This document shows positions 316-28,707 of a stretch of 28,707 nt of DNA, one piece after another (within the stretch, counting starts at the first letter, position 1; each line of letters begins with the position of its first letter). The stretch is from positions 1 to 28,707 of the forward strand of contig PUNB01000262.1 of NCBI GenBank assembly GCA_003552565.1. Reading direction: 5' to 3'. This stretch comes from Lentisphaerota bacterium. Its GTDB lineage: Bacteria; Verrucomicrobiota; Lentisphaeria; Oligosphaerales; PUNB01. The translations under genes were made by a program, and so were the position numbers. The notes beneath the pieces are model-generated. The model did no database searches. It saw only the letters and a program-made list of their open reading frames with translations, and had not been told where the DNA came from.

Positions 316-381
316 AGTTGATTAGCCTGAGACCGTCCGGAAAGGGGTATTGTGTGTTTTGAGTTCAACTTTCTCCCGAAT

Positions 382-416
382 CCGCCTGAGGCGGATTAGA
401 GACAAGGTTTTTTCAG
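382..416 (+). terminator. palindrome 'AATCCGCCTGAGGCGGATT' + GACAAGG + T6, terminator-like element downstream of the PCD gene
   Basis: Perfect 8-bp stem with a 3-nt loop, followed 11 nt later by TTTTTT. The same element recurs at 14779-14815. Confidence 0.45.
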
Positions 417-420
417 CACA

Positions 421-655
421 AATTCGGCACACTACCCCTTTCCGGATGCCCTCTAGCTCGAGGTTATGCGAAAAGGGTTTTGTGGAGCTCACAAGCTCGA
501 AAGTGACTGTGCGTTCCACGGCCAATTGGATTAAGGCGAATGATTATGACGAAAGATTAGGGAAAAACGGGTGCGTCCCTTAATCTTTTGCCCTAATCTT
601 TCGCCTTAATCTCGTTTCCGACCCTTTTTCGCGGAGGATCTAGCTCCGCCGGGAA
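421..655 (+). repeat. structured ~230-bp interspersed repeat, copy L (motif A - hairpin core - motif A)
   Basis: About 135 bp of core is roughly 90% identical to the reverse complement of 2640-2790. The core itself is an imperfect ~90-nt hairpin ('GATTAAGGCGAA..GATTAGGG' / 'CCCTTAATC..TTCGCCTTAATC'). It is flanked by motif A at 435-458 and 622-645. Confidence 0.8.
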
Positions 656-3896: not shown

Positions 3897-4082
3897 GGGC
3901 GTTTTTCTAGAGGTTATGCGGAAAGGTTGATGTTCCGATTTGTGTTGGTTTAACCATTGTCTAGAACCTTGTCTCGCACCTTGTCGGGAACAAAAAACTG
4001 AATCGAAAAAAGTGCGCGACAAAGTGTTGTAACACCCGATTCTCTCTCGGGGTGCCCGGCGCGTCGCGCCACGAACCGGCGC

Positions 4083-4616
4083 TTATGTGAGGCTTCGCGT
4101 TGTTGGGCACGTTAAACTGCCGGAGTTCCAGCCGCTGGAGACTTGCTCGGCGGAAGGCTGTGTGTCGTTATCACGCCGCGGCTCCGGCGGTTCCAGCTTC
4201 ATTATTCCCGAGGCGGAAAAAAGAATCATACCGATAATAATCAGGGACAAGACGGCGTATCCCCACACGCCATTGCGAGCGAAGGCGTAGATAGTGGGTA
4301 TTAGTCCCCAGATGACAACCGTGGTTCCCAAAGTCAAACCGAAAATTATCAAGCCGTCCCCGGTAAAGAGTTCATTCCACCAAAGGGAATGTATAGAGGG
4401 GATAGAGCCATGCAGGATTTTCCAAATTTCCGGACCTGAGACTCCCTCGAAGATCATGGCGAAAGTGAAGTAGGGATTCAAGGCTGTATCCTCAGGACGG
4501 AGGACGGATATAATGATTCCGATCAAACAGATAACGCAAGTGGATAAGGTTATCCAATATACCACTTGTCCATAAATTCTGTTGTAAAGAGGCGCCACTG
4601 GTCTGTCTTCAGTCAT
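4083..4616 (-). CDS. DUF1634-family small membrane protein, partner of TauE/SafE
   Basis: 177 aa with 4 hydrophobic helices. It overlaps the upstream TauE/SafE gene by 8 nt, a known conserved pairing. The C-terminal about 20 codons run into a repeat/hairpin, so the true stop is uncertain. Confidence 0.55.
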   Translation of the reverse strand: MTEDRPVAPLYNRIYGQVVYWITLSTCVICLIGIIISVLRPEDTALNPYFTFAMIFEGVSGPEIWKILHGSIPSIHSLWWNELFTGDGLIIFGLTLGTTVVIWGLIPTIYAFARNGVWGYAVLSLIIIGMILFSASGIMKLEPPEPRRDNDTQPSAEQVSSGWNSGSLTCPTTRSLT

Positions 4617-5700
4617 GATTGGGTTCCTTGATCAGGCTGGTTCCCGCGAAGAGGAAAAGCAAAGCTAAAATCGAAAAATCCAGCCAATAGGGAGTGGGAT
4701 TAATCCAGTGAAACATAGCCATGGCTCTGGTTATCAGCCCCCAGGCGGAAAAGCCCATAAGCGCTATCAGCAGCCAGCGTATGAATCCGGCTTTTATTCG
4801 CACCAGCAATAACGATCCGGCCAGGCCTCCCGCGACAGTTCCCGCCAGCCAGGGAGCGGCAAAGAGGGGAATTAAAGCTCCCATCATGAAGTAAGGCCAG
4901 ATCGCTATACTGCCGCCCATCCCCACTAATGAAACGCTGTTGGCGGCGGCTACTTTTAAAGGAGCTCCGGCAATGAAATTCTGGAAAGGCACCATGGCCC
5001 AGCCGGCTCCCATGCCGAAAAATCCCGATATCAGGCCGACAATCAGGATAGACAAAAAAAGCCAGCCCATATGGATCAGATCGTAAACCATTACTTTGCC
5101 CAGCGAAGGTTCGTAATATGGTTGTCGCAGATTAAGCGCAATGGTGATTTTATCTGATTTTTTTATTTTCGGCCATTCGATTTTACGTCCGCCGAAAATG
5201 AAGTAGATCACCATGCACGTTATCAAAATACCCAGCAGCAGGCGCACTAAAGCTTCTCCAGTGTCTCCCAGATAGCTGGCCACCCAGATCGCGCTCAACG
5301 CTCCCGTGAAAGCCGCGGCTCCGAAAGCCACACACAAAAAGATAACCATTTTTAAATTGGCCAGACCGCTACGCATGACTGTGCCGGTCGCTATAAGACC
5401 GCTGAACACTCCTACTATCAGACCTGTGCTTCTGGCGATAAGACTATCCACTGGCGTAAAGCCCATTATCAGGGGGGAAAAGATCACTCCGCCGCCGATT
5501 CCGCCGATGATGGCCAGCATGGCGATGGCCGCACCCATAAGGAAAAAACCCAGGAGACAGCCGAGGAGAGATACACCGGCCATGCCCCCTTCCGGCGCGG
5601 GCAAGGTGATGGCGGCAACTCCGATTAGAATAAAGGAGAACACGGACAGCAACACAAGGATGTTCAGTACAAGCCAGGGGGGCTTAAACAGCTTATTCAT
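4609..5700 (-). CDS. TauE/SafE (DUF81) family anion/sulfite exporter-like membrane transporter
   Basis: 363 aa with two internally repeated 4-TM halves and Gly-rich helices ('GGIGGGVIFSPLIMGF', 'GMGAGWAMVPF'). Confidence 0.8.
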   Translation of the reverse strand: MNKLFKPPWLVLNILVLLSVFSFILIGVAAITLPAPEGGMAGVSLLGCLLGFFLMGAAIAMLAIIGGIGGGVIFSPLIMGFTPVDSLIARSTGLIVGVFSGLIATGTVMRSGLANLKMVIFLCVAFGAAAFTGALSAIWVASYLGDTGEALVRLLLGILITCMVIYFIFGGRKIEWPKIKKSDKITIALNLRQPYYEPSLGKVMVYDLIHMGWLFLSILIVGLISGFFGMGAGWAMVPFQNFIAGAPLKVAAANSVSLVGMGGSIAIWPYFMMGALIPLFAAPWLAGTVAGGLAGSLLLVRIKAGFIRWLLIALMGFSAWGLITRAMAMFHWINPTPYWLDFSILALLFLFAGTSLIKEPNHD

Positions 5701-5819
5701 TTTTTGTCCTTTATGTCATTCAAAAGTGCGAAAATATTTGTATATAAAATTGGTTTGCTGAAAATTAAGCAGTTTTATCTCCACTTTATTGCAATACAGA
5801 ATAATGCTCATGCTAACAA

Positions 5820-5897
<78 letters not shown>

Positions 5898-5961
5898 TAT
5901 GCGCCCGCGGAAGGTGCCTCGCAAAGAGCGGTTACTTTAACTGATAAATCGGCAAAGTCAA

Positions 5962-8063: not shown

Positions 8064-8176
8064 GCGTATGAACTTTAAGCCTCCGGAGATACCTTTTCGC
8101 ATACCCTCTAGCTATGATTACCCTAGTGCCAGAATTGTGGCGGTTAATATAGCGCGGGAATTAACTTTTTAAACTA

Positions 8177-10719: not shown

Positions 10720-10765
10720 AATTAACGGAATCAGGACATAGTATGAAAAACATCGGGGTGTGTTA

Positions 10766-10984
10766 ATGAAATTGCGAATACCTAAAGACGGTGATCAGCT
10801 GCTGGAAATGGAATATCTGGAGATGCGGGCTCATCTTCTGGAAGTGGCCGCCGCCTTTGATCGTATTGAGCGGGCCGGAGGAACGTCTGACAGCCGCTTG
10901 GATCTGCTGCGCCGGCTTGGAAGGATCGCCGTGGAAGAGAAAAGTGATCGCGCCCAGCGGGTTCTGAATGAACTGTCCGAATGA
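10766..10984 (+). CDS. hypothetical small protein (72 aa, helical, charged)
   Basis: ORF 'MKLRIPKDGDQLLEMEYLEMRAHLLEVAAAFDRIERAGG...'. GGGGTG lies 6-11 nt upstream of the ATG (a GTG at 10760 is also possible). No family recognised. Confidence 0.4.
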   Translation: MKLRIPKDGDQLLEMEYLEMRAHLLEVAAAFDRIERAGGTSDSRLDLLRRLGRIAVEEKSDRAQRVLNELSE

Positions 10985-11319
10985 GTTTCGAGTCGGTATG
11001 GAATACAGGTTTCGGGTTTCAGAAAGGCTGTTTTGTACTTTCCTAGTCTCGCACCTTGTCTCGCACTTAGTCTGAAAAATGAGGAATCGACAGAAAACCA
11101 GACAAGGTGCGAGACAAAGTTTTATTTTTTTGTGCGTGTAGAGACTGCAAACACCTTTTCGCAGAGGGTCTAGCTATTAATAAGGTGTCAACTTTTAGTC
11201 AGGACTTGACACACCTGGACACTGAAACCTGAAACCACGAAGCCTCACATAAGTGAGTTTTATAATGAGATATTCGGCCGGCATTCGGACTTGGGAAACT
11301 AAAAAAAAGAAGTTATTTT

Positions 11320-12153: not shown

Positions 12154-12471
12154 ACACCTGACCGGGGCAGACGTGATTCGGCCGGGGCGTAATGTGTCAG
12201 TCATAGGAGCACGAATTTCCCACCTTTCACTGAAGCATTACTCCGAAACTGTCCATGCGCTTGCAATTACACGGATGCCAATTACTATTTCTGTTCCGGG
12301 GTATCTGGCGCCTTGCGCCGGGGGCGGGGCTTATCTGAAGCACAGTTTTGAATATTGAATGGTGAATATTGAACTTGGAATTTTTACCTGAAACCTGACA
12401 CCAGAAACCAAGCTGTTACCCATTCGTTTTGAGCAAGAGTCGCGTTTCATTCCAAACCAGCGGTGTAAAAA

Positions 12472-12678: not shown

Positions 12679-12917
12679 TTCACGAGCCAAGATTACCGTC
12701 TGGCCACTTGCAGACTAAATAGAAAAAAAATAACATAACATGACAAAAATAAAACCACTGCGCGGACGGATTGTTCCGTCCGAATAAAATTCAAACCTTG
12801 TCCAGAACCTGAATCTATTTGGACTTTGGTTCAGGAGAAGGTTAGTTCCGTCATCCTTTGGAACGACTGTGTAATTGTTTCTAAACCGAAAACCCAAAAA
12901 CGCCAAGGAGCATAAAT

Positions 12918-13274
12918 ATGAGCACTGGTTATCATGAAGCAGGTTTAAGTCAGAAAACTCAGAATATCCATCGGGCCATCGCCAGTTTGCAGGAAGAACT
13001 GGAAGCGGTGGACTGGTATAATCAGCGCGCTGATGTGACTGAGGACGCGGAATTGAAAGCGGTTCTTGAACACAACCGCAATGAAGAGATTGAGCACGCC
13101 GGTATGCTGCTTGAATATCTCCGTCGCAATATGAGCGAGTTTGACGAGCAATTGTCGACCTACCTGTTTTCCACTCTGCCGATCACCCAGATCGAAGAGG
13201 CTGAAGAGGGCGGGGAAAATGACGCTCCCGGCGACGTCTCCAGCTCTGGCTTGGGCATTGGGAAAATGGATTAG
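12918..13274 (+). CDS. encapsulated ferritin-like protein (EncFtn/Flp) cargo with C-terminal encapsulin targeting peptide
   Basis: 'EELEAVDWYNQRADVTEDAELKAVLEHNRNEEIEHAGMLLEYLRR' is the EncFtn di-iron motif region. The Gly-rich linker ends in 'SSGLGIGKMD', resembling the family-1 cargo-loading peptide (GSLGIGxL). Confidence 0.8.
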   Translation: MSTGYHEAGLSQKTQNIHRAIASLQEELEAVDWYNQRADVTEDAELKAVLEHNRNEEIEHAGMLLEYLRRNMSEFDEQLSTYLFSTLPITQIEEAEEGGENDAPGDVSSSGLGIGKMD

Positions 13275-13346
13275 CTCAGTTCTTGATGCCTTGGTAGTGA
13301 ACTGATTTATTGCTTTGTATTATCAAAAAACATAAGGAAATGAAAG

Positions 13347-14153
13347 ATGGATATTTTAAAAAGATCACTGGCTCCAATCACTGACAGCGCCTGGAATGAG
13401 ATTGATCAGGAAGCGGCGCGCGTTTTGAGAGGCAATCTGGCTTTTCGCGGCCTGGTGGACTTCGTCGGACCCGAGGGCTGGGAGAAGGCGGCGGTCAATC
13501 TGGGCACCATGAAAGAAGGCGGCAAGCAGCTGGTGAAAGGAGTTAACTGGGGATTACGTCAGGTTCAGCCTTTGACCGAAATCAGAGTGCCCTTTTCTCT
13601 TGATATATGGGAGTTGGACAACTTGGAACGCGGCGCCCAGGCACCCGATCTGGACGCGGTCACGCAGGCGGCTCAACAAGGAGCGGTCTTTGAGGAAACG
13701 GCTGTTCTCAACGGTTTTTCCGAGGCTCAGATCACCGGCATCGGTCAGGCGGCCGGCAAACCGATCGGCATGTCCAAGAACCCAGCCGATTGCCTCGCCG
13801 CTTTTGAAGAAGGCATCGTGGCCTTGCAGAAGCAGGGAATCAACGGTCCATACCAGCTGGTTCTGGGAACGGAAGCCTATCAAATGATAATGGCCGGTGA
13901 TGATAAAGGTTATCCTCTGCACAAGCGCGTACAGGAATTGACCGGAACCGACATCAAATGGAGTCCGGCAGTGATGCAGGCGGGGATTATTTTAAGCTGT
14001 CGCGGCGGTGATTATGTCTTCACCTGCGGCCAGGATTTTTCCATCGGCTATCATTCACATTCAACCAAGGCGGTTAATCTGTTTTTAACCGAGTCTTTTA
14101 CTTTCCAGGTTCTGGAACCCGCGGCGGCGGTCAGTATATCCTGGAAAAAGTGA
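13347..14153 (+). CDS. family-1 encapsulin nanocompartment shell protein (linocin M18-like, HK97 fold)
   Basis: Collinear similarity to the T. maritima encapsulin: 'MDILKRSLAPITDSAWNEID', 'WGLRQVQPLTEIRVPFSLDIWELDNLERG', 'GPYQLVLGTEAYQ', 'GYPLHKRVQELTG', 'GQDFSIGYHSHSTKAVNLFLTESFTFQVLEP'. Confidence 0.9.
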   Translation: MDILKRSLAPITDSAWNEIDQEAARVLRGNLAFRGLVDFVGPEGWEKAAVNLGTMKEGGKQLVKGVNWGLRQVQPLTEIRVPFSLDIWELDNLERGAQAPDLDAVTQAAQQGAVFEETAVLNGFSEAQITGIGQAAGKPIGMSKNPADCLAAFEEGIVALQKQGINGPYQLVLGTEAYQMIMAGDDKGYPLHKRVQELTGTDIKWSPAVMQAGIILSCRGGDYVFTCGQDFSIGYHSHSTKAVNLFLTESFTFQVLEPAAAVSISWKK

Positions 14154-14215: not shown

Positions 14216-14662
14216 TCAGGCGTTTTTCTCGAGGATAATGGTGACTGGGCCGTCATTGGTCAAACTTACCCGCATATCGGCGGCGAAAATGCCAGTGGCG
14301 ACCTTCAGGCCGGTTGTGTCCTGGATGACCTGACTGAAGAGTTGATAAAGCGGGTCGGAAATTTCCGGCGGCGCCGCTTCCACAAAGCTGGGGCGGCGCC
14401 CTTTGGCACAGTCACCGTAAAGAGTGAACTGTGATACAACCATGATTTCGCCGCCGATATCCTGGACTGAACGATTCATGCGCTGCTGCTGATCCCGGAA
14501 GATCCTTAAATTGGCGCATTTGTCGGCGAGCCAGCGTGCTTCCTTTTCCGTGTCGTCATGGTGAACTCCCAGCAGAATAACCAGCCCCGGGCCGATTTCG
14601 CCGACAGTTTCATTGTCCACCTCCACTCGGGCATCCGTAACTCTCTGCACTACCGCTTTCAT
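14216..14662 (-). CDS. dtd: D-aminoacyl-tRNA deacylase
   Basis: 'MKAVVQRVTDARVEV...GPGLVILLGVHHDDTEKEARWLADKCANLRIFRD...SQFTLYGDCAKGRRPSF'. Confidence 0.9.
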   Translation of the reverse strand: MKAVVQRVTDARVEVDNETVGEIGPGLVILLGVHHDDTEKEARWLADKCANLRIFRDQQQRMNRSVQDIGGEIMVVSQFTLYGDCAKGRRPSFVEAAPPEISDPLYQLFSQVIQDTTGLKVATGIFAADMRVSLTNDGPVTIILEKNA

Positions 14663-14725
14663 TTTGTCTCTTTTCTTTTCGAGTGATTATATTCTGCGTC
14701 GGTTGTCAAGATTGTGTGAGACTTG

Positions 14726-14976
14726 GAATATATATCCTTGTCTCGAACCTTGTCTCGAACCTTGTCCCGAACCTTGTCCCTAATCCGCCTCAGGCGGATT
14801 AGGGACAAGGTTTTTTATGCCGCACCAGTCTCTCGCTCGGAGTATCAGGCTCCTCGAGCCAGCGGTCAGGCTTATGTGAAACTCAGCCTTGTCTACCTCA
14901 GGCGGATCTGGTTTTCTTTCGATTCCTCATTTTTCGGACTAAGTGCGAGACAAGGTGCGAGACAAGGTGAGCACAA
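14726..14976. repeat. composite structured element: 4x tandem 12-mer 'CCTTGTCTCGAA', a 12-bp-stem palindrome with T6, and inverted 12-mer copies at the far end
   Basis: 14736-14783 holds the tandem 12-mers. 14779-14815 is 'CCCTAATCCGCC-TCAG-GGCGGATTAGGG ACAAGGTTTTTT'. 14946-14970 is 'GTGCGAGACAAGGTGCGAGACAAGG', the inverse of the 12-mer. A 'GGCTTATGTGAAACTCAGCC' box lies at 14859-14878. Confidence 0.7.
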
Positions 14977-15007
14977 AATCAGGTCTCAACCCCTTTCCGG
15001 ACGGGCT

Positions 15008-15940
15008 CTATCTAAGGCTGTTTGCAGTGTTTTTCGAGGCGCGCGCCGCACCATGCCAGGTCCACACATTGCCGCTGAATTCTTTTTCAGCTTTTAACGC
15101 CGCGGCGGCTGCTTGTTCTTCAGAGTTGAACACGGCGAAAACCGTCGGGCCGCTGCCGGAAACATGGCTTGCCATGGAATCTTGATTCCGGAGGAAGTCA
15201 AAAAACATTTGTAATAGAGGAATTTTCTGCAAAAGCGGTTCGTTAAAACGAGTTCGAGTATTTCGGGCAATTTTTTCTAGATCCCCCTCCCACATTGCTT
15301 TTAATAAAGGTATGGAGGAGATTTCCATTAGGTCATCGAAACTTCCGCGGATTCGCTGATAAGCCCAGCCGGCGGAAACGGGGAGGCCGCCGGGGTTTAA
15401 CAATAGAATCGGAATAGAGCAGTTAAGTGTAACCGGATCCAGTTTATCGCCTATGCCGCGGGCTAAGGAGGGAAGGGGATTCAGGAAGAAGGGCGCGTCA
15501 GCTCCGAGTTGGCGGGCCATTTGATGGCGTCGGCTGTCACCAAGCGTGATTCCGGTTATCTCCTCCAGAGCATTCAGCACGGCGGCGCCGTCTGAACTGC
15601 CGCCGCCCAGGCCTGCGGCCACGGGTATTTTTTTATCGATGTGTATATGCCAGGCCGGGGGGATTTTTGCTTCTTCCGCAAAAGCAATTGCGGCCTGGTA
15701 AACCAAATTGGAGCTGTCAACTGGAACCTGCGGGTGGCTACAGGTGATTTCAGGCTCCCTGCCGTGGATAGGGGTTACAGTTATAGTATCACATAGATCC
15801 GGCAGCGGCAGAAAAACAGACTCCAACTCATGCATCCCGTCGGCTCTTTTGCCGCGAATGGCCAGGAACAGATTTATCTTCGCCGGTGTCTTAACGATTA
15901 CACTACGGATGGCAGCTGCTGAATGTTCTGTTTTTAACAT
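15008..15940 (-). CDS. ispE: 4-diphosphocytidyl-2-C-methyl-D-erythritol kinase
   Basis: 'PAKINLFLAIRGKRADGMHELESVF' and 'KIPVAAGLGGGSSDGAAVL' are GHMP-kinase/IspE motifs. The stop overlaps motif A (14990-15014). Confidence 0.85.
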   Translation of the reverse strand: MLKTEHSAAAIRSVIVKTPAKINLFLAIRGKRADGMHELESVFLPLPDLCDTITVTPIHGREPEITCSHPQVPVDSSNLVYQAAIAFAEEAKIPPAWHIHIDKKIPVAAGLGGGSSDGAAVLNALEEITGITLGDSRRHQMARQLGADAPFFLNPLPSLARGIGDKLDPVTLNCSIPILLLNPGGLPVSAGWAYQRIRGSFDDLMEISSIPLLKAMWEGDLEKIARNTRTRFNEPLLQKIPLLQMFFDFLRNQDSMASHVSGSGPTVFAVFNSEEQAAAAALKAEKEFSGNVWTWHGAARASKNTANSLR

Positions 15941-16724: not shown

Positions 16725-16874
16725 CGCTTGTGTGAGACTTTGTGGTTTCAGGTTTCAGTGTTCAGATGTCAGACAACAGAAACCATGCGAGACAAACTGT
16801 AGTAACGCATCCCATGGGACGCTTGTGAGTTTTTTTTAATTAATTTGCCTGTAACATGAAAGGATAAATGCTTA

Positions 16875-17519: not shown

Positions 17520-17532
17520 GAAAATATTGAGT

Positions 17533-17600
17533 TACCGCGCGGACGTATTATTACGTCCGGTATATTGGGCTACCGCGCGGACGTATTATTACGTCCGGTA
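17533..17600. repeat. two tandem 30-bp palindromic units 'TACCGCGCGGACGTATTATTACGTCCGGTA' separated by 8 bp
   Basis: Unit 1 at 17533-17562 and unit 2 at 17571-17600 are identical. Each contains the perfect palindrome CGGACGTA-ATTAT-TACGTCCG. They lie between the purO stop and the hisD start. Confidence 0.85.
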
Positions 17601-19904: not shown

Positions 19905-20190
19905 CCAGCTTGGTTTTAGATCTCAGGTTTCAGGTGTCAGGACTTGACAAGGCGGATCGTGCAGTGACCGATAAAGATAGTGGTTTAAGCGTAACCAAGT
20001 AAGTGTGAGACGAAGGGTGGGATGAAGAGGAAGCCGAAGTGTTTAGAAGAGAGGCCTGAAGCCCATGACACTTAACCCCCCACTTAATCGTACACTTGAG
20101 CCCACTCTTAGTTGGTTACGCTTAAGCAACCTGCTTGGGTACGAAATTCTGAAACCTGAAACCCGAAACCTGAACTCTGTCACGAACAAT
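19905..20190. repeat. structured intergenic element bounded by inverted motif-C heptamer runs, with an internal imperfect 25-bp inverted repeat
   Basis: Motif C '...CAGCTTGGTTTTAGATCTCAGGTTTCAGGTGTCAGGACTTGACAAGG' at 19905-19951. Its inverted counterpart 'CTGAAACCTGAAACCCGAAACCTGAAC' at 20148-20174. IR arms 19985-20009 vs 20104-20130 (TTAAGCGTAACCAA...). Confidence 0.65.
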
Positions 20191-22517: not shown

Positions 22518-22870
22518 GGTTTCGTATTGTGGCTATAAAAACCTGGTGTCTCATACAAGCCCAGCCGCCGGCGCAAAGCGCCTGATACCCCGGATGGAAA
22601 CAGCGGCTAACGAAGAACCGTGACCCTATCCGTGTGTATCCGTGTTAATCCGTGGTGAAAAAAGGCAGAAAATAAAACCACGGATGGACACAGATTAACA
22701 CTGATATAAAATGGTTCGTTTCTAGTGGGAAAAACGGAGAACAAAACGACCGTGTTTCACATAAGCCTGATCGCCGGCGCGATGCACGCCGAATACCCTG
22801 AGGGTGAGACTGTTGCGGCATAAAAAACCTTGTCTCGAACCTTGTCCAGTTTTTTTTGACTTTTTGTGCC

Positions 22871-27554: not shown

Positions 27555-27779
27555 AGTCCTAGCTCACTCTAAGTTTTTTATGGCTTTTTCTTAAAACAAA
27601 TGTTTATTAATAAAAGATTCTTTTCTGAAATTTCATCGGTAACAGCTTGGTTTCAGGTTTCTGGTGTCAGGGTATTAGTTAAATCCCAAATCTAAAATCA
27701 CAAATCTCATTGATGGAATATGGTTCGGGACAAAGTTGAACCCAGAGACACGCGAAACACCTTTTCGGATACCCTCAGG

Positions 27780-28707
27780 CTAGTATTCCAAGTCAATCGG
27801 CTCTTCGAGTCTTGCCCGGATAGTGAACGTTCTCAGATTAAACACCTGATCCGACACTTCGTATTCATCAAAATCGACCCGATCCTCAACGAAAACAGGC
27901 AATCTTCTCAACCTTGACAAAAGTACCTGTTCCGGACCGCGGCCGTTATCCGGAACCTCTTCAGGCGCCTCAATATCCTCGAGCTCATCGGCCGCCTCTT
28001 CGAGTTCTTCCCGCGCTAACTCTTCAAGCTCTTCATCCCCAACGTCTTGTCCGTCAATTCTAACTCCCGGCGGAAGTGAAAGACTGTGGCCGCGAACTGC
28101 TATGCCGGTGATTCTGCCTCTCGGGCCGCTTTCTTCCAGTTCAATCTCATCAGGATCTCTTTCTTCATCCTCGCGCCGCGGTTCATCGTCACGATCACGC
28201 CTCCTGCTGAAAGGACTGGCGGGAGCGTCGCGCTCGGGCCGGCGTTCCTCTTCTTCCTCTCTCAAATCCTCAAAAACCGGCCTGAATTCAGTGAACCACA
28301 ACCTTCCGGGTATTTCCGCTTCCACGGAATTAACCACCCGCACCCAATCTTCGCGTCTTCTCAGCAGGCGGTTCAATCGCTGGTACTGATCCTCGACATT
28401 GCTGATCTCGCTCTCCACCCCGCTCAATTCGCTCTCTTTCTCTTCCAGCTCTTGGCGCTGTTCCCGGAATTGTTCCACCACCGGCTCATAAACCTGAGCC
28501 ATGTACATATTGCTGAACAAAGAGAAGGTCAACAGCAAAAGTACGCACAAAGCCGCCGCTCCCAGCCATGTCTTCTTCTGCTCAAAAGCCACTAGTCGAC
28601 GTATGCGCCGCGGCAGGAGATTAACCTCAACCGGACAGGCCCCTCGATAACGCAGCGCCAAACCAACCGCCTGACTGAACCCATGGGCCTCGTTTTCCAA
28701 TCTTTCA
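27780..28707 (-). CDS. PilN-like pilus assembly protein, possibly fused to an upstream PilM-like domain. The 5' end is outside the window.
   Basis: The ORF is open to the window end. 'VNLLPRRIRRLVAFEQKKTWLGAAALCVLLLLTF' is a PilN N-terminus (INLLP motif + TM), then a coiled coil. The preceding 'GFSQAVGLALRY' resembles a PilM C-terminus. Long acidic/Arg tail. Confidence 0.55.
   Translation of the reverse strand, partial: ERLENEAHGFSQAVGLALRYRGACPVEVNLLPRRIRRLVAFEQKKTWLGAAALCVLLLLTFSLFSNMYMAQVYEPVVEQFREQRQELEEKESELSGVESEISNVEDQYQRLNRLLRRREDWVRVVNSVEAEIPGRLWFTEFRPVFEDLREEEEERRPERDAPASPFSRRRDRDDEPRREDEERDPDEIELEESGPRGRITGIAVRGHSLSLPPGVRIDGQDVGDEELEELAREELEEAADELEDIEAPEEVPDNGRGPEQVLLSRLRRLPVFVEDRVDFDEYEVSDQVFNLRTFTIRARLEEPIDLEY

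Follow-up and report, generated by a model that had tools for sequence, protein, structure and literature searches.

A mosaic of dispersed intergenic repeats with a terminator-like hairpin between dtd and ispE on a Lentisphaerota contig

The window analyzed here is an entire 28,707-bp NCBI contig from a Lentisphaerota bacterium, and the element considered is a block of about 250 nt, made of tandem 12-mers, a strong hairpin with a T-run and inverted 12-mers, in the spacer between dtd and ispE. At least four dispersed modules, all of them present elsewhere in the window too, are stacked in this spacer. The reading that we favor, with a probability of roughly 0.55, is that the block is a local accumulation of dispersed modular intergenic repeats that work through RNA structure, and not a single gene or transposon. 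Its 12-mer is the unit of an apparently undescribed family of tandem-unit hairpin repeats found throughout the Planctomycetes-Verrucomicrobia-Chlamydiae (PVC) superphylum. The only part of the spacer with a predicted activity is the hairpin with its six U residues, shaped like an intrinsic terminator of plus-strand RNA.

Anatomy of the tandem array and hairpin

Four head-to-tail 12-mers of the type CCTTGTCYCKAA, with the C-rich strand on the plus strand, occupy 14736-14783 and run into a palindrome, as the initial annotation of this DNA had described; the fourth unit is also the start of the left hairpin arm. Tandem Repeats Finder reports the array as period 12, 3.6 copies and 96% matches. The hairpin, referred to as M1, and the inverted units beyond it were read directly from the sequence:

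14736-14747 and 14748-14759 (+): 12-mers CCTTGTCTCGAA
14760-14771 (+): 12-mer CCTTGTCCCGAA
14772-14783 (+): 12-mer CCTTGTCCCTAA
14772-14789 (+): left arm of hairpin M1, CCTTGTCCCTAATCCGCC
14790-14792 (+): loop of hairpin M1, TCA
14793-14810 (+): right arm of hairpin M1, GGCGGATTAGGGACAAGG
14811-14816 (+): T6 directly after hairpin M1
14944-14955 and 14956-14967: two inverted units TGCGAGACAAGG, ~130 nt beyond the hairpin

The stem of M1 has 18 perfect base pairs, or 20-21 when the flanking AA/TT and a G.U pair are counted. The palindrome and T-run had been noticed before, but the stem was put at 12 bp and its description, TCAG-GGCGG, counts one G twice; likewise, the two inverted 12-mers are present, but at 14944-14967 and not at 14946-14970. 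M1 folds with -38.9 kcal/mol (z = -9.8) on the plus strand and -37.7 on the minus strand, and no terminator-like site in a 7-kb scan ranks above it. T6 stands on the plus side only, and the sequence 3' of the hairpin on the minus strand is UUCGGG, without a U-tract; hairpin and T-run are thus oriented for a plus-strand transcript, as was first proposed, and both flanking genes are on the minus strand. In sequence, the hairpin is a hybrid of CCTTGTC and CCTAATC types.

On a larger scale, the arrays at 14736-14767 and 14936-14967 are 88% complementary, and the 255-nt region folds with an outer stem around the hairpin (on the plus strand z = -8.35 with -113 kcal/mol, on the minus strand z = -7.6), which agrees with the earlier suggestion of a long stem enclosing a terminator-like hairpin. 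When 14736-14816 is folded by itself, a largely unpaired 5' part of 33 nt, containing three CCUUGUC units, precedes the terminator.

The spacer as a mosaic of modules

Within the dtd-ispE spacer 219 of 345 bases lie inside repeat high-scoring segment pairs; window-wide, repeats cover 28% of intergenic DNA vs 0.01% of coding DNA. The repeat analysis finds copies of parts of the spacer elsewhere in the window at 77-92% identity. The modules of the spacer are:

14769-14816 (+): M1, perfect 18-21 bp hairpin and T6; 14770-14816 is 89% identical to 367-413
14811-14885 (-): M2, with GTTTCACATAAGCC, the GC hairpin GGCUC-GAG-GAGCC, GAUACUCCGAG..., and GCGGCATAAAAAA adjoining the hairpin (repeat analysis)
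14887-14907 (+): M1 left-half fragment CCTTGTCTACCTCAGGCGGAT, 81% identical to 14779-14799
14907-14978 (-): M3, with TTTTGTGCT, two units CCTTGTCTCGCA (14967-14944) and the A-rich CTTAGTCCGAAAAATGAGGAATCGAAAGAAAACCAGA; 92% identical to 11031-11102
14970-15015 (+): M4, AGCACAAAATC...ACCCCTTTCCGGACGGGCTCTATCT, overlapping the ispE stop codon (15008-15010); 77% identical to 415-458

Related arrangements stand at four further sites, where all of the additional copies listed in the initial annotation were found (369-413, 3955-4024, 11042-11119, and 22828-22849):

367-458 (+): decayed M1 hairpin and T6 (369-413), then M4 (415-458); -17.4 kcal/mol
3955-4024 (+): three 12-mers and one inverted unit, no T-run; between two minus-strand genes
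11031-11130 (+): complete M3 hairpin (16-21 bp, 12-mer arms), then TTTTATTTTTTT; -31.9 kcal/mol, z -5.2
22754-22858 (+): M2 copy, then 12-mers (two) and T8; intergenic, between convergent genes

The composite at 367-458 lies 54 nt 3' of a co-oriented pterin-4a-carbinolamine dehydratase-like gene (64-315, +), in terminator position, and no array or promoter stands ahead of its hairpin (369-413). At 11031-11102 the M3 copy forms a closed hairpin with a T-run after it, downstream of a small co-oriented open reading frame (ORF; 10760-10984, +). At the dtd-ispE locus the 3' arm of M3 is degenerate, and the minus-strand fold of 14884-14972 is not significant (z -0.17).

M2 has five copies in the window (4012-4103, 12262-12348, and 14806-14892 on the minus strand; 22541-22625 and 22748-22834 on the plus strand); 14799-14882 and 22754-22839 are 83-90% identical. 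The copies share CACATAAGCC, a conserved GGCGC/GCGCC hairpin (with one compensatory GGCUC/GAGCC change) and GAUACCCCGGA, and in one of them TAA doubles as the stop codon of the gene at 4083-4616. M2 was considered as a structured RNA and set aside: a 5-bp hairpin with one compensatory pair is all that the five aligned copies share, which is insufficient.

M4 belongs to a set of eight related copies within the window. A motif of about 30 nt, ACMCCTTTYCG(N6-8)CTCTAGCT, has eight copies, at 322-348, 428-458, 454-487, 3905-3935, 8081-8117, 11148-11179, 14989-15015, and 27750-27785. Its complement (..CCGGAAAGGGGT) stands directly 3' of the stop codons of the gene at 64-315, of ispE and of the gene at 27780-28700; the sense form precedes three other genes by 10-140 nt.

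M1 and M4 are adjacent at 367-458; at the dtd-ispE locus about 155 nt, made up of M2 and M3, intervene. The block 14817-14969 is bounded on both sides by GACAAGG(T), which suggests that M2 and M3 were placed by recombination at this shared core. The left array is of the TCGAA type and the right array of the TCGCA type, with one mismatch per unit in the outer stem; because the arms belong to different dispersed modules and sub-types, the outer stem is formed by two neighboring modules and not by one element. The idea of a single element of about 250 nt is accordingly not upheld, given that difference between the arms, the separate copies of the modules elsewhere and the absence of a target-site duplication at the locus (flanks GAATATATAT and TGAGCACAAA).

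The 12-mer repeat family in PVC bacteria

At up to two mismatches the 12-mer matches the window 19 times vs 3.06 ± 1.75 in shuffles, and 17 of the 19 matches are intergenic, though intergenic DNA makes up 15.7% of the window. The family was then sought in one genome per GTDB species with a pattern of two adjacent units, CCTTGTCYCGMACCTTGTC (19-mer), which gave at least 75 stretches; by our estimate about 17 chance matches are expected in the whole collection. Among the matches listed, the two-unit 19-mer is multi-copy in metagenome-assembled genomes (MAGs) of the PVC group and gives single matches in genomes outside it. Those with several loci, again among the matches listed, are:

Kiritimatiellia MAGs: JBAYXX, JBLRXB, JAQIBS, JAQUCE
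Lentisphaerae MAGs: CAJXKU, JAVVEH, CAYQJG
Verrucomicrobiota: two Candidatus (Ca.) Moanabacter assemblies (Mb-scale contigs), JBMCIU
"PVC group" bins: PXBF, PWZG

The 12-mer is therefore not confined to the handful of copies in the window; such a confinement is what the initial annotation had regarded as damaging to its proposal. Ca. Moanabacter is verrucomicrobial (PMC6256433), and misbinning is unlikely for it because its contigs are Mb-scale. The same modules are present on three contigs of the same sediment samples (L048, L055, and L074) that were assigned to other phyla, probably by misbinning.

Of 115 steps from one unit to the next, 113 measure exactly 12 nt. The unit consensus is C-Y-T-T-G-T-C-N-C-G-M-A, in which conservation of the core is partly built in because the loci were chosen by the pattern itself. 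Arrays have 2-10 units, and many are solitary, without an inverted partner; 17 hairpins have a C-rich CCTTGTC array on the 5' side and a G-rich GACAAGG array on the 3' side. One array in a Lentisphaerae MAG (L036) is 100% identical over 45 nt to 14736-14780, with unrelated flanks, and the unit number is 10, 2, and 1.5 in otherwise homologous Lentisphaerae elements. Moanabacter has elements of about 150 nt with termini of 21-33 bp (2-3 units), the G-rich arm outside and partly conserved interiors. Kiritimatiellia arrays adjoin hairpins made up of GATTAGG/CCTAATC 12-mers, with a gradual transition from one to the other. A composite insert of 426 nt with a GACAAGG x3 array is present in one Kiritimatiellia species, where it lies between two copies of a palindrome of 50 nt; a second species, whose flanks are 94-96% identical, has one palindrome and no insert at the orthologous site. 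This perfect-type palindrome of about 50 nt, TAGGTCCGATTTCCAATCGGACATGTCCGGTTGGAAACCGGACCTA, is dispersed in Kiritimatiellia MAGs (5661-5710 and 6136-6187 of L051, 443-492 of L057, also L027).

Housekeeping genes unrelated to one another make up the 86 ORFs that lie within 1.5 kb of arrays; no family is represented in more than two of them, and transposases are not enriched. Spacers with arrays are co-directional, convergent, and divergent in 20, 9, and 5 cases vs 88, 22, and 29 in the background, and the C-rich strand is that of the gene in 16 cases and the opposite one in 18. Taken together, these properties describe a family spread over the whole genome, between genes and without a preferred orientation.

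Literature searches returned no earlier description of these intergenic repeats in PVC bacteria, Kiritimatiellota, or Lentisphaerae, and the Rfam 15 covariance models, a check proposed at the outset, matched nothing in 14663-15007, whether the gathering score or E<=5 was applied. A scan of viral contigs gave five matches and no phage link: two fall in coding DNA by chance, and three are CCTTGTCCCGCA arrays that look like coding sequence. The latter, on the related IMG/VR contigs L200, L201, and L202, have 3-6 tandem CCTTGTCCCGCA units apparently in a coding region, vary in copy number, and would encode Gly/Ala/Gln-rich repeats on the complement.

The hairpin core AATCCGCCTSAGGCGGATT was tried as a family marker and rejected: it gives at least 120 metagenome matches in unrelated contexts, none with CCTTGTC/GACAAGG shoulders, and is a generic hairpin. 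In many unrelated metagenome contigs (L097, L101, L118, L123, L125, L141, L150, L159, L161, L175, L176, L180, L189, and others) it stands beside a conserved TAGAAGCYATCTCA motif, a separate repeat family. The likeness of the 12-mer unit (10/12) to the complement of the 16S rRNA 1492 region was also dismissed, with an estimated chance probability of ~0.1.

Comparison with known repeat systems

Dispersed intergenic repeats are already known as a class. By behavior the closest known systems are the repetitive extragenic palindromic (REP) sequences and bacterial interspersed mosaic elements (BIMEs), and by architecture the short tandem intergenic repeats, such as the short tandemly repeated repetitive (STRR) sequences. 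Like REP/BIME of Enterobacteria and Pseudomonas, the 12-mer family is high-copy, intergenic, and orientation-independent, forms hairpin mosaics and coincides with assembly breaks; REP/BIME sequences also lie between cistrons and at gene ends, as barriers at RNA 3' ends or weak terminators. The mosaic character is the same, in that modules M1-M4 are combined differently and 28% of the intergenic DNA is repeated. The REP unit is an imperfect palindrome of 20-40 nt (8-13 bp stem, short loop) with an unpaired GTAG or CGTC tag at one end (PMC3733652). The 12-mer, in contrast, has no internal dyad, so that only opposed arrays pair; GTAG is lacking, and TGTC/CGTC lies inside the unit and not as a tag beside a stem-loop. 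The 12-mer unit is also, unlike REP, common to phylum-level lineages. No REP-associated tyrosine transposase (RAYT, a Y1 transposase) is among the 25 families listed for the 86 neighboring ORFs.

STRR sequences are short, tandemly repeated intergenic heptamers of cyanobacteria. TAACTGA direct repeats occur in Beggiatoaceae, Cyanobacteria, and Bacteroidetes, distant phyla with no evident transfer route between them; they precede start codons by a few nt and share one orientation, apart from one indirect repeat among 170 sets (PMC4679880). As in both of these systems, the 12-mer is a short unit repeated head-to-tail in many intergenic regions of several phyla, beside functionally unrelated genes; it differs from them in having a unit of 12 nt instead of 7, in lacking strand bias and in often being paired into hairpins.

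Other likenesses are analogies. The pneumococcal BOX element, whose modules of 45-59 nt are restricted to streptococci, is likewise modular and intergenic, with long stems and one module that varies in tandem number, but has no sequence relation to the 12-mer. Neisseria DNA uptake sequences (DUS) and Pasteurellaceae uptake signal sequences (USS) are words of 10-12 nt present about once per kb on both strands, inverted pairs of which form terminators; they resemble the 12-mer as over-represented words on both strands with hairpin pairs downstream of genes. DUS/USS are non-tandem and common in genes, whereas 17 of 19 copies of the 12-mer are intergenic and most are in arrays. Intrinsic terminators share the GC-containing hairpin directly followed by a U-tract, but the hairpin described here has 21 perfect bp, is antisense to both neighbors and has arms composed of units that occur at dozens of loci. 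A CRISPR array was rejected, since the units abut and there are no spacers.

The locus and its neighbors

The genes and the unique sequence around the block are:

12918-14153 (+): EncFtn-encapsulin gene pair, encapsulated ferritin (PF22277) and encapsulin shell (PF04454); convergent with dtd
14216-14662 (-): dtd (PF02580)
14664-14735 (no strand): AT-rich unique stretch from the dtd start codon to the array, with promoter-like hexamers on both strands
15008-15940 (-): ispE, GHMP kinase (PF00288/PF08544)

The stretch 14664-14735 is the only part of the spacer without further copies in the window. A consensus scan places a plus-strand σ70-like site, TTGTCT-18-TATATT, at 14664-14693 (9/12 matches), and a second plus-strand pair, TTGTCA (14703-14708) and AATATA (14727-14732), can be read in the sequence. 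Toward dtd, the minus strand has the promoter-like pair GAGACA (14756-14751, within a 12-mer)-18-TATATT (14732-14727). Such sites number 12 in the scan vs 5.8 ± 2.8 in shuffles, an excess of about twofold that is weak evidence. The 62-nt gap between encapsulin and dtd has a sole hairpin, weak and imperfect, followed by U5 (z -1.5).

The best ispE homologue in a search among 5.8 billion clusters is 52% identical, and the named relatives belong to Lentisphaerae, Victivallales, and Verrucomicrobiota. Judging from these protein sequences, the source organism is a deep-branching, uncultured PVC bacterium; because no ispE homologue exceeds 52% identity, orthologous spacers are not comparable. The only identical contigs, from independent short-read assemblies of the same organism, stop at ~14765 and ~14985, which are both block edges, and breaks at these points are expected because of the high-copy repeats. 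The plus-strand ORF at 14723-15097, with its "LSRTLSRT" product, reads through the array and is an artefact, as it had been taken to be.

Function and alternative explanations

The anatomy of the spacer, its mosaic homology, and the distribution and orientation-neutrality of the family are observed features; from them we infer terminator activity, a barrier role, and a mode of spread. Arrays would lengthen and shorten by slippage, hairpins would arise from local inverted duplication with the 12-nt unit switching strand at the loops, and modules would be reshuffled by recombination at shared cores. In plus-strand RNA the 21-bp hairpin and U6 would act as an intrinsic terminator, halting antisense or convergent transcription before it reaches ispE; such transcription could start in the AT-rich dtd promoter region or come from read-through of the encapsulin operon. 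The ispE-to-dtd message would not be terminated at the hairpin, because the minus strand has UUCGGG there and no U-tract; its nested stems may instead form a barrier to 3'-exonucleases or RNase III in the manner of REP/BIME. In E. coli, REP/BIME sequences are established as intercistronic barriers of this kind.

M1 has the stable GC-containing stem-loop of an intrinsic terminator and a U-tract directly 3' of it on the plus strand. What it lacks is a co-oriented unit just upstream: the nearest plus-strand gene, for encapsulin, ends at 14153, about 660 nt away across the antisense dtd gene. The scan finds no comparable plus-strand terminator between the encapsulin stop codon (14153) and 14770. 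Two sister hairpins with T-runs (369-413 and 11042-11130) stand just 3' of the co-oriented genes at 64-315 and 10760-10984; the module therefore does occupy terminator positions in this genome.

Several points weigh against the proposal that the pile-up acts through RNA structure. The weak hairpin and U5 in the encapsulin-dtd gap weaken the idea of encapsulin read-through, since partial termination could occur there. Most 12-mer hairpins outside this lineage have no T-run, so termination is not the general role of the family. The 21-bp stem exceeds that of typical terminators and may be a young palindromic duplication without selected function. The orientation is "wrong" for both neighbors, and neutral insertion in random orientation gives the same result. 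Finally, near-identity of the 12-mer across phylum-level lineages goes beyond slippage and recombination and suggests a sequence-specific partner or horizontal spread.

If the block encoded an independent small RNA, the transcript would be a plus-strand RNA of ~80-115 nt that starts at 14700-14738 and ends with the hairpin and U6 at 14816, and whose 5' part, with three unpaired CCUUGUC units, could possibly pair with GACAAGG RNAs or be cis-antisense to the dtd 5' untranslated region. The predicted fold of 14736-14816, an open 33-nt region and then a terminator, is the usual layout of a trans-acting small RNA, the terminator faces the plus strand with no plus-strand gene nearby, and promoter-like hexamers lie at 14664-14693 and 14703-14732. 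These hexamers, however, exceed shuffles by just about twofold, 14663-15007 has no Rfam match even at E<=5, and the sister M1 copy (369-413) has neither array nor promoter ahead of it and occupies a 3' untranslated region position; the modules also stand in both orientations to genes, and because the family is orientation-neutral a strand-specific product is unlikely to be its purpose. We regard such an RNA as quite improbable. A mobile origin, proposed in the initial annotation as a non-autonomous element, would make the 12-mer arrays transposase-binding sites in terminal inverted repeats, as in a miniature inverted-repeat transposable element (MITE), moved in trans by a shared PVC transposase. 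The inverted arrays that form the arms (14736-14767 and 14936-14967, 88% complementary), the well-delimited Moanabacter elements of ~150 nt with 21-33 bp termini, the presence/absence polymorphism of the 426-nt composite in Kiritimatiellia and the high copy number with assemblies broken at repeats all fit such movement, and a conserved unit with lineage-specific interiors fits a shared transposase. Yet no target-site duplication is seen at this locus, nor at any of 10 elements in Moanabacter; what borders the Kiritimatiellia insert is a 50-nt palindrome present twice, and not a short duplication; the two arms here come from different modules and unit sub-types; the C-rich strand is outside here and the G-rich strand in Moanabacter, so that arm polarity differs with lineage; and many arrays stand alone, unmatched by an inverted one. 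Transposases show no enrichment among the 86 neighboring ORFs, in a search of ~300 kb, and a repeated 1.9-kb insertion sequence in the Moanabacter locus L011 was rejected as the cognate element because its ends are unrelated to the 12-mer. A possible likeness of GACAAGGTGCGA to the IS5 terminal repeat plays no part in these arguments. With no target-site duplication, no cognate transposase, arms from different modules and differing arm polarity, a classical MITE is unsupported, and movement by a shared transposase is an unlikely account of the block.

In the remaining alternative the arrays would be bound, as DNA or as nascent RNA, by a sequence-specific factor that is itself conserved, and the hairpins would be secondary; the arrays might serve a nucleoid- or partition-type protein that binds tandem units, function as a DNA-uptake signal, or offer phased C-rich loading pads to the Rho hexamer. 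It would be the best account of whole-unit conservation across phylum-level lineages, for four PVC lineages retain all 12 nt of the unit and not the core alone, phased at exactly 12 nt, and a 45-nt array is identical in an unrelated genome context. A density of ~0.66 per kb with both strands used, and inverted pairs at gene ends, also accord with it. Known uptake sequences are common in coding DNA and are not tandem, whereas here the sites are nearly absent from coding DNA (2/19): the word is over-represented as an uptake sequence would be, yet 17 of 19 copies are intergenic and mostly tandem. The published heuristic for Rho utilization (rut) sites is C>G with C every 11-13 nt, and a site of ~78 nt is needed (PMC6407284). 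The C-rich strand, with C>G and C every 12 nt, fits that rule, but arrays are usually 24-48 nt long, are often sequestered by their own complement and show no strand bias relative to genes. The grading of Kiritimatiellia arrays from CCTAATC-type to CCTTGTC-type looks like drift and not strict recognition, the neighboring genes have no common function, and no candidate protein emerged. Altogether the block is improbable as primarily an array of binding sites. The broader proposal that C-Y-T-T-G-T-C-N-C-G-M-A is a recognition module of a factor conserved in Kiritimatiellia, Lentisphaerae, and Verrucomicrobiota is possible, though doubtful; candidates for the factor are a domesticated or trans-acting transposase, an oligomerizing protein on tandem units, a DNA-uptake receptor, and a phased loader such as Rho. 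If it were true, the arrays would mark a superphylum-wide intergenic system with a biochemical partner, and the dtd-ispE block would be one multi-site assembly within it.

Apparently new in this family are the exactly phased 12-mers that serve as hairpin arms and are common to three phylum-level PVC lineages. The local prediction of the favored reading, a pile-up working through RNA structure, is a strong antisense terminator upstream of dtd. In practice the repeats fragment MAG assemblies, create spurious ORFs such as the LSRT repeat protein, and seed mis-annotation. A dedicated binding partner, if there is one, would offer a route into the biology of gene expression and genome maintenance in a little-studied, largely uncultured superphylum.

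Other repeats in the window and related contigs

Two 149-nt copies, 483-631 and 2629-2777, are 90% complementary and surround a 2-kb segment with two genes on the plus strand, one of them membrane transporter-like (762-1955) and the other at 2071-2565. Tandem 13-mers, GATTAAGGCGAAA and CCTTAATCTTTCG, make each copy a hairpin in its own right; similar 13-mer hairpins are found in PVC-group contigs L026 and L055. At 22627-22710, 10-mer tandem units TATCCGTGTG pair with their complement as a hairpin. ATCCGTG-type tandem units are also present in Ca. Moanabacter (L065, ~2460-2490), and more than one short unit family is therefore common to PVC lineages.

Arrays of the heptamer CTGAAAC/GGTTTCA lie within a longer conserved module, ACAYCTGRACACTGAAACCTGAAACCACRAAG..., at the following positions:

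11222-11236, 12386-12409, and 20149-20174 (+)
16744-16758, 19912-19941, and 27649-27671 (complement)

The CTGAAAC strand stands 63-95 nt upstream of a start codon in four cases (11320, 12472, 20251, and, on the minus strand, 27554), and the module could be a promoter or regulatory module.

Between two plus-strand genes, 17524-17600 has two tandem copies of a 38-nt unit with its own hairpin, CGGACGTATTATTACGTCCG, and a third, diverged copy (12747-12784) lies upstream of the EncFtn gene. Rfam gives a near-threshold match to the HPnc0260 antisense RNA at 5739-5868 (+), 58.5 bits against a gathering score of 59; it overlaps a tRNA gene on the opposite strand (5833-5906) and is probably a tRNA-related artefact. 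The L074 contig, closely related to the window in repeat content, ends in a long CATTACG/CATTACA heptamer array (2423-2589) upstream of a glycoside-hydrolase-like gene.

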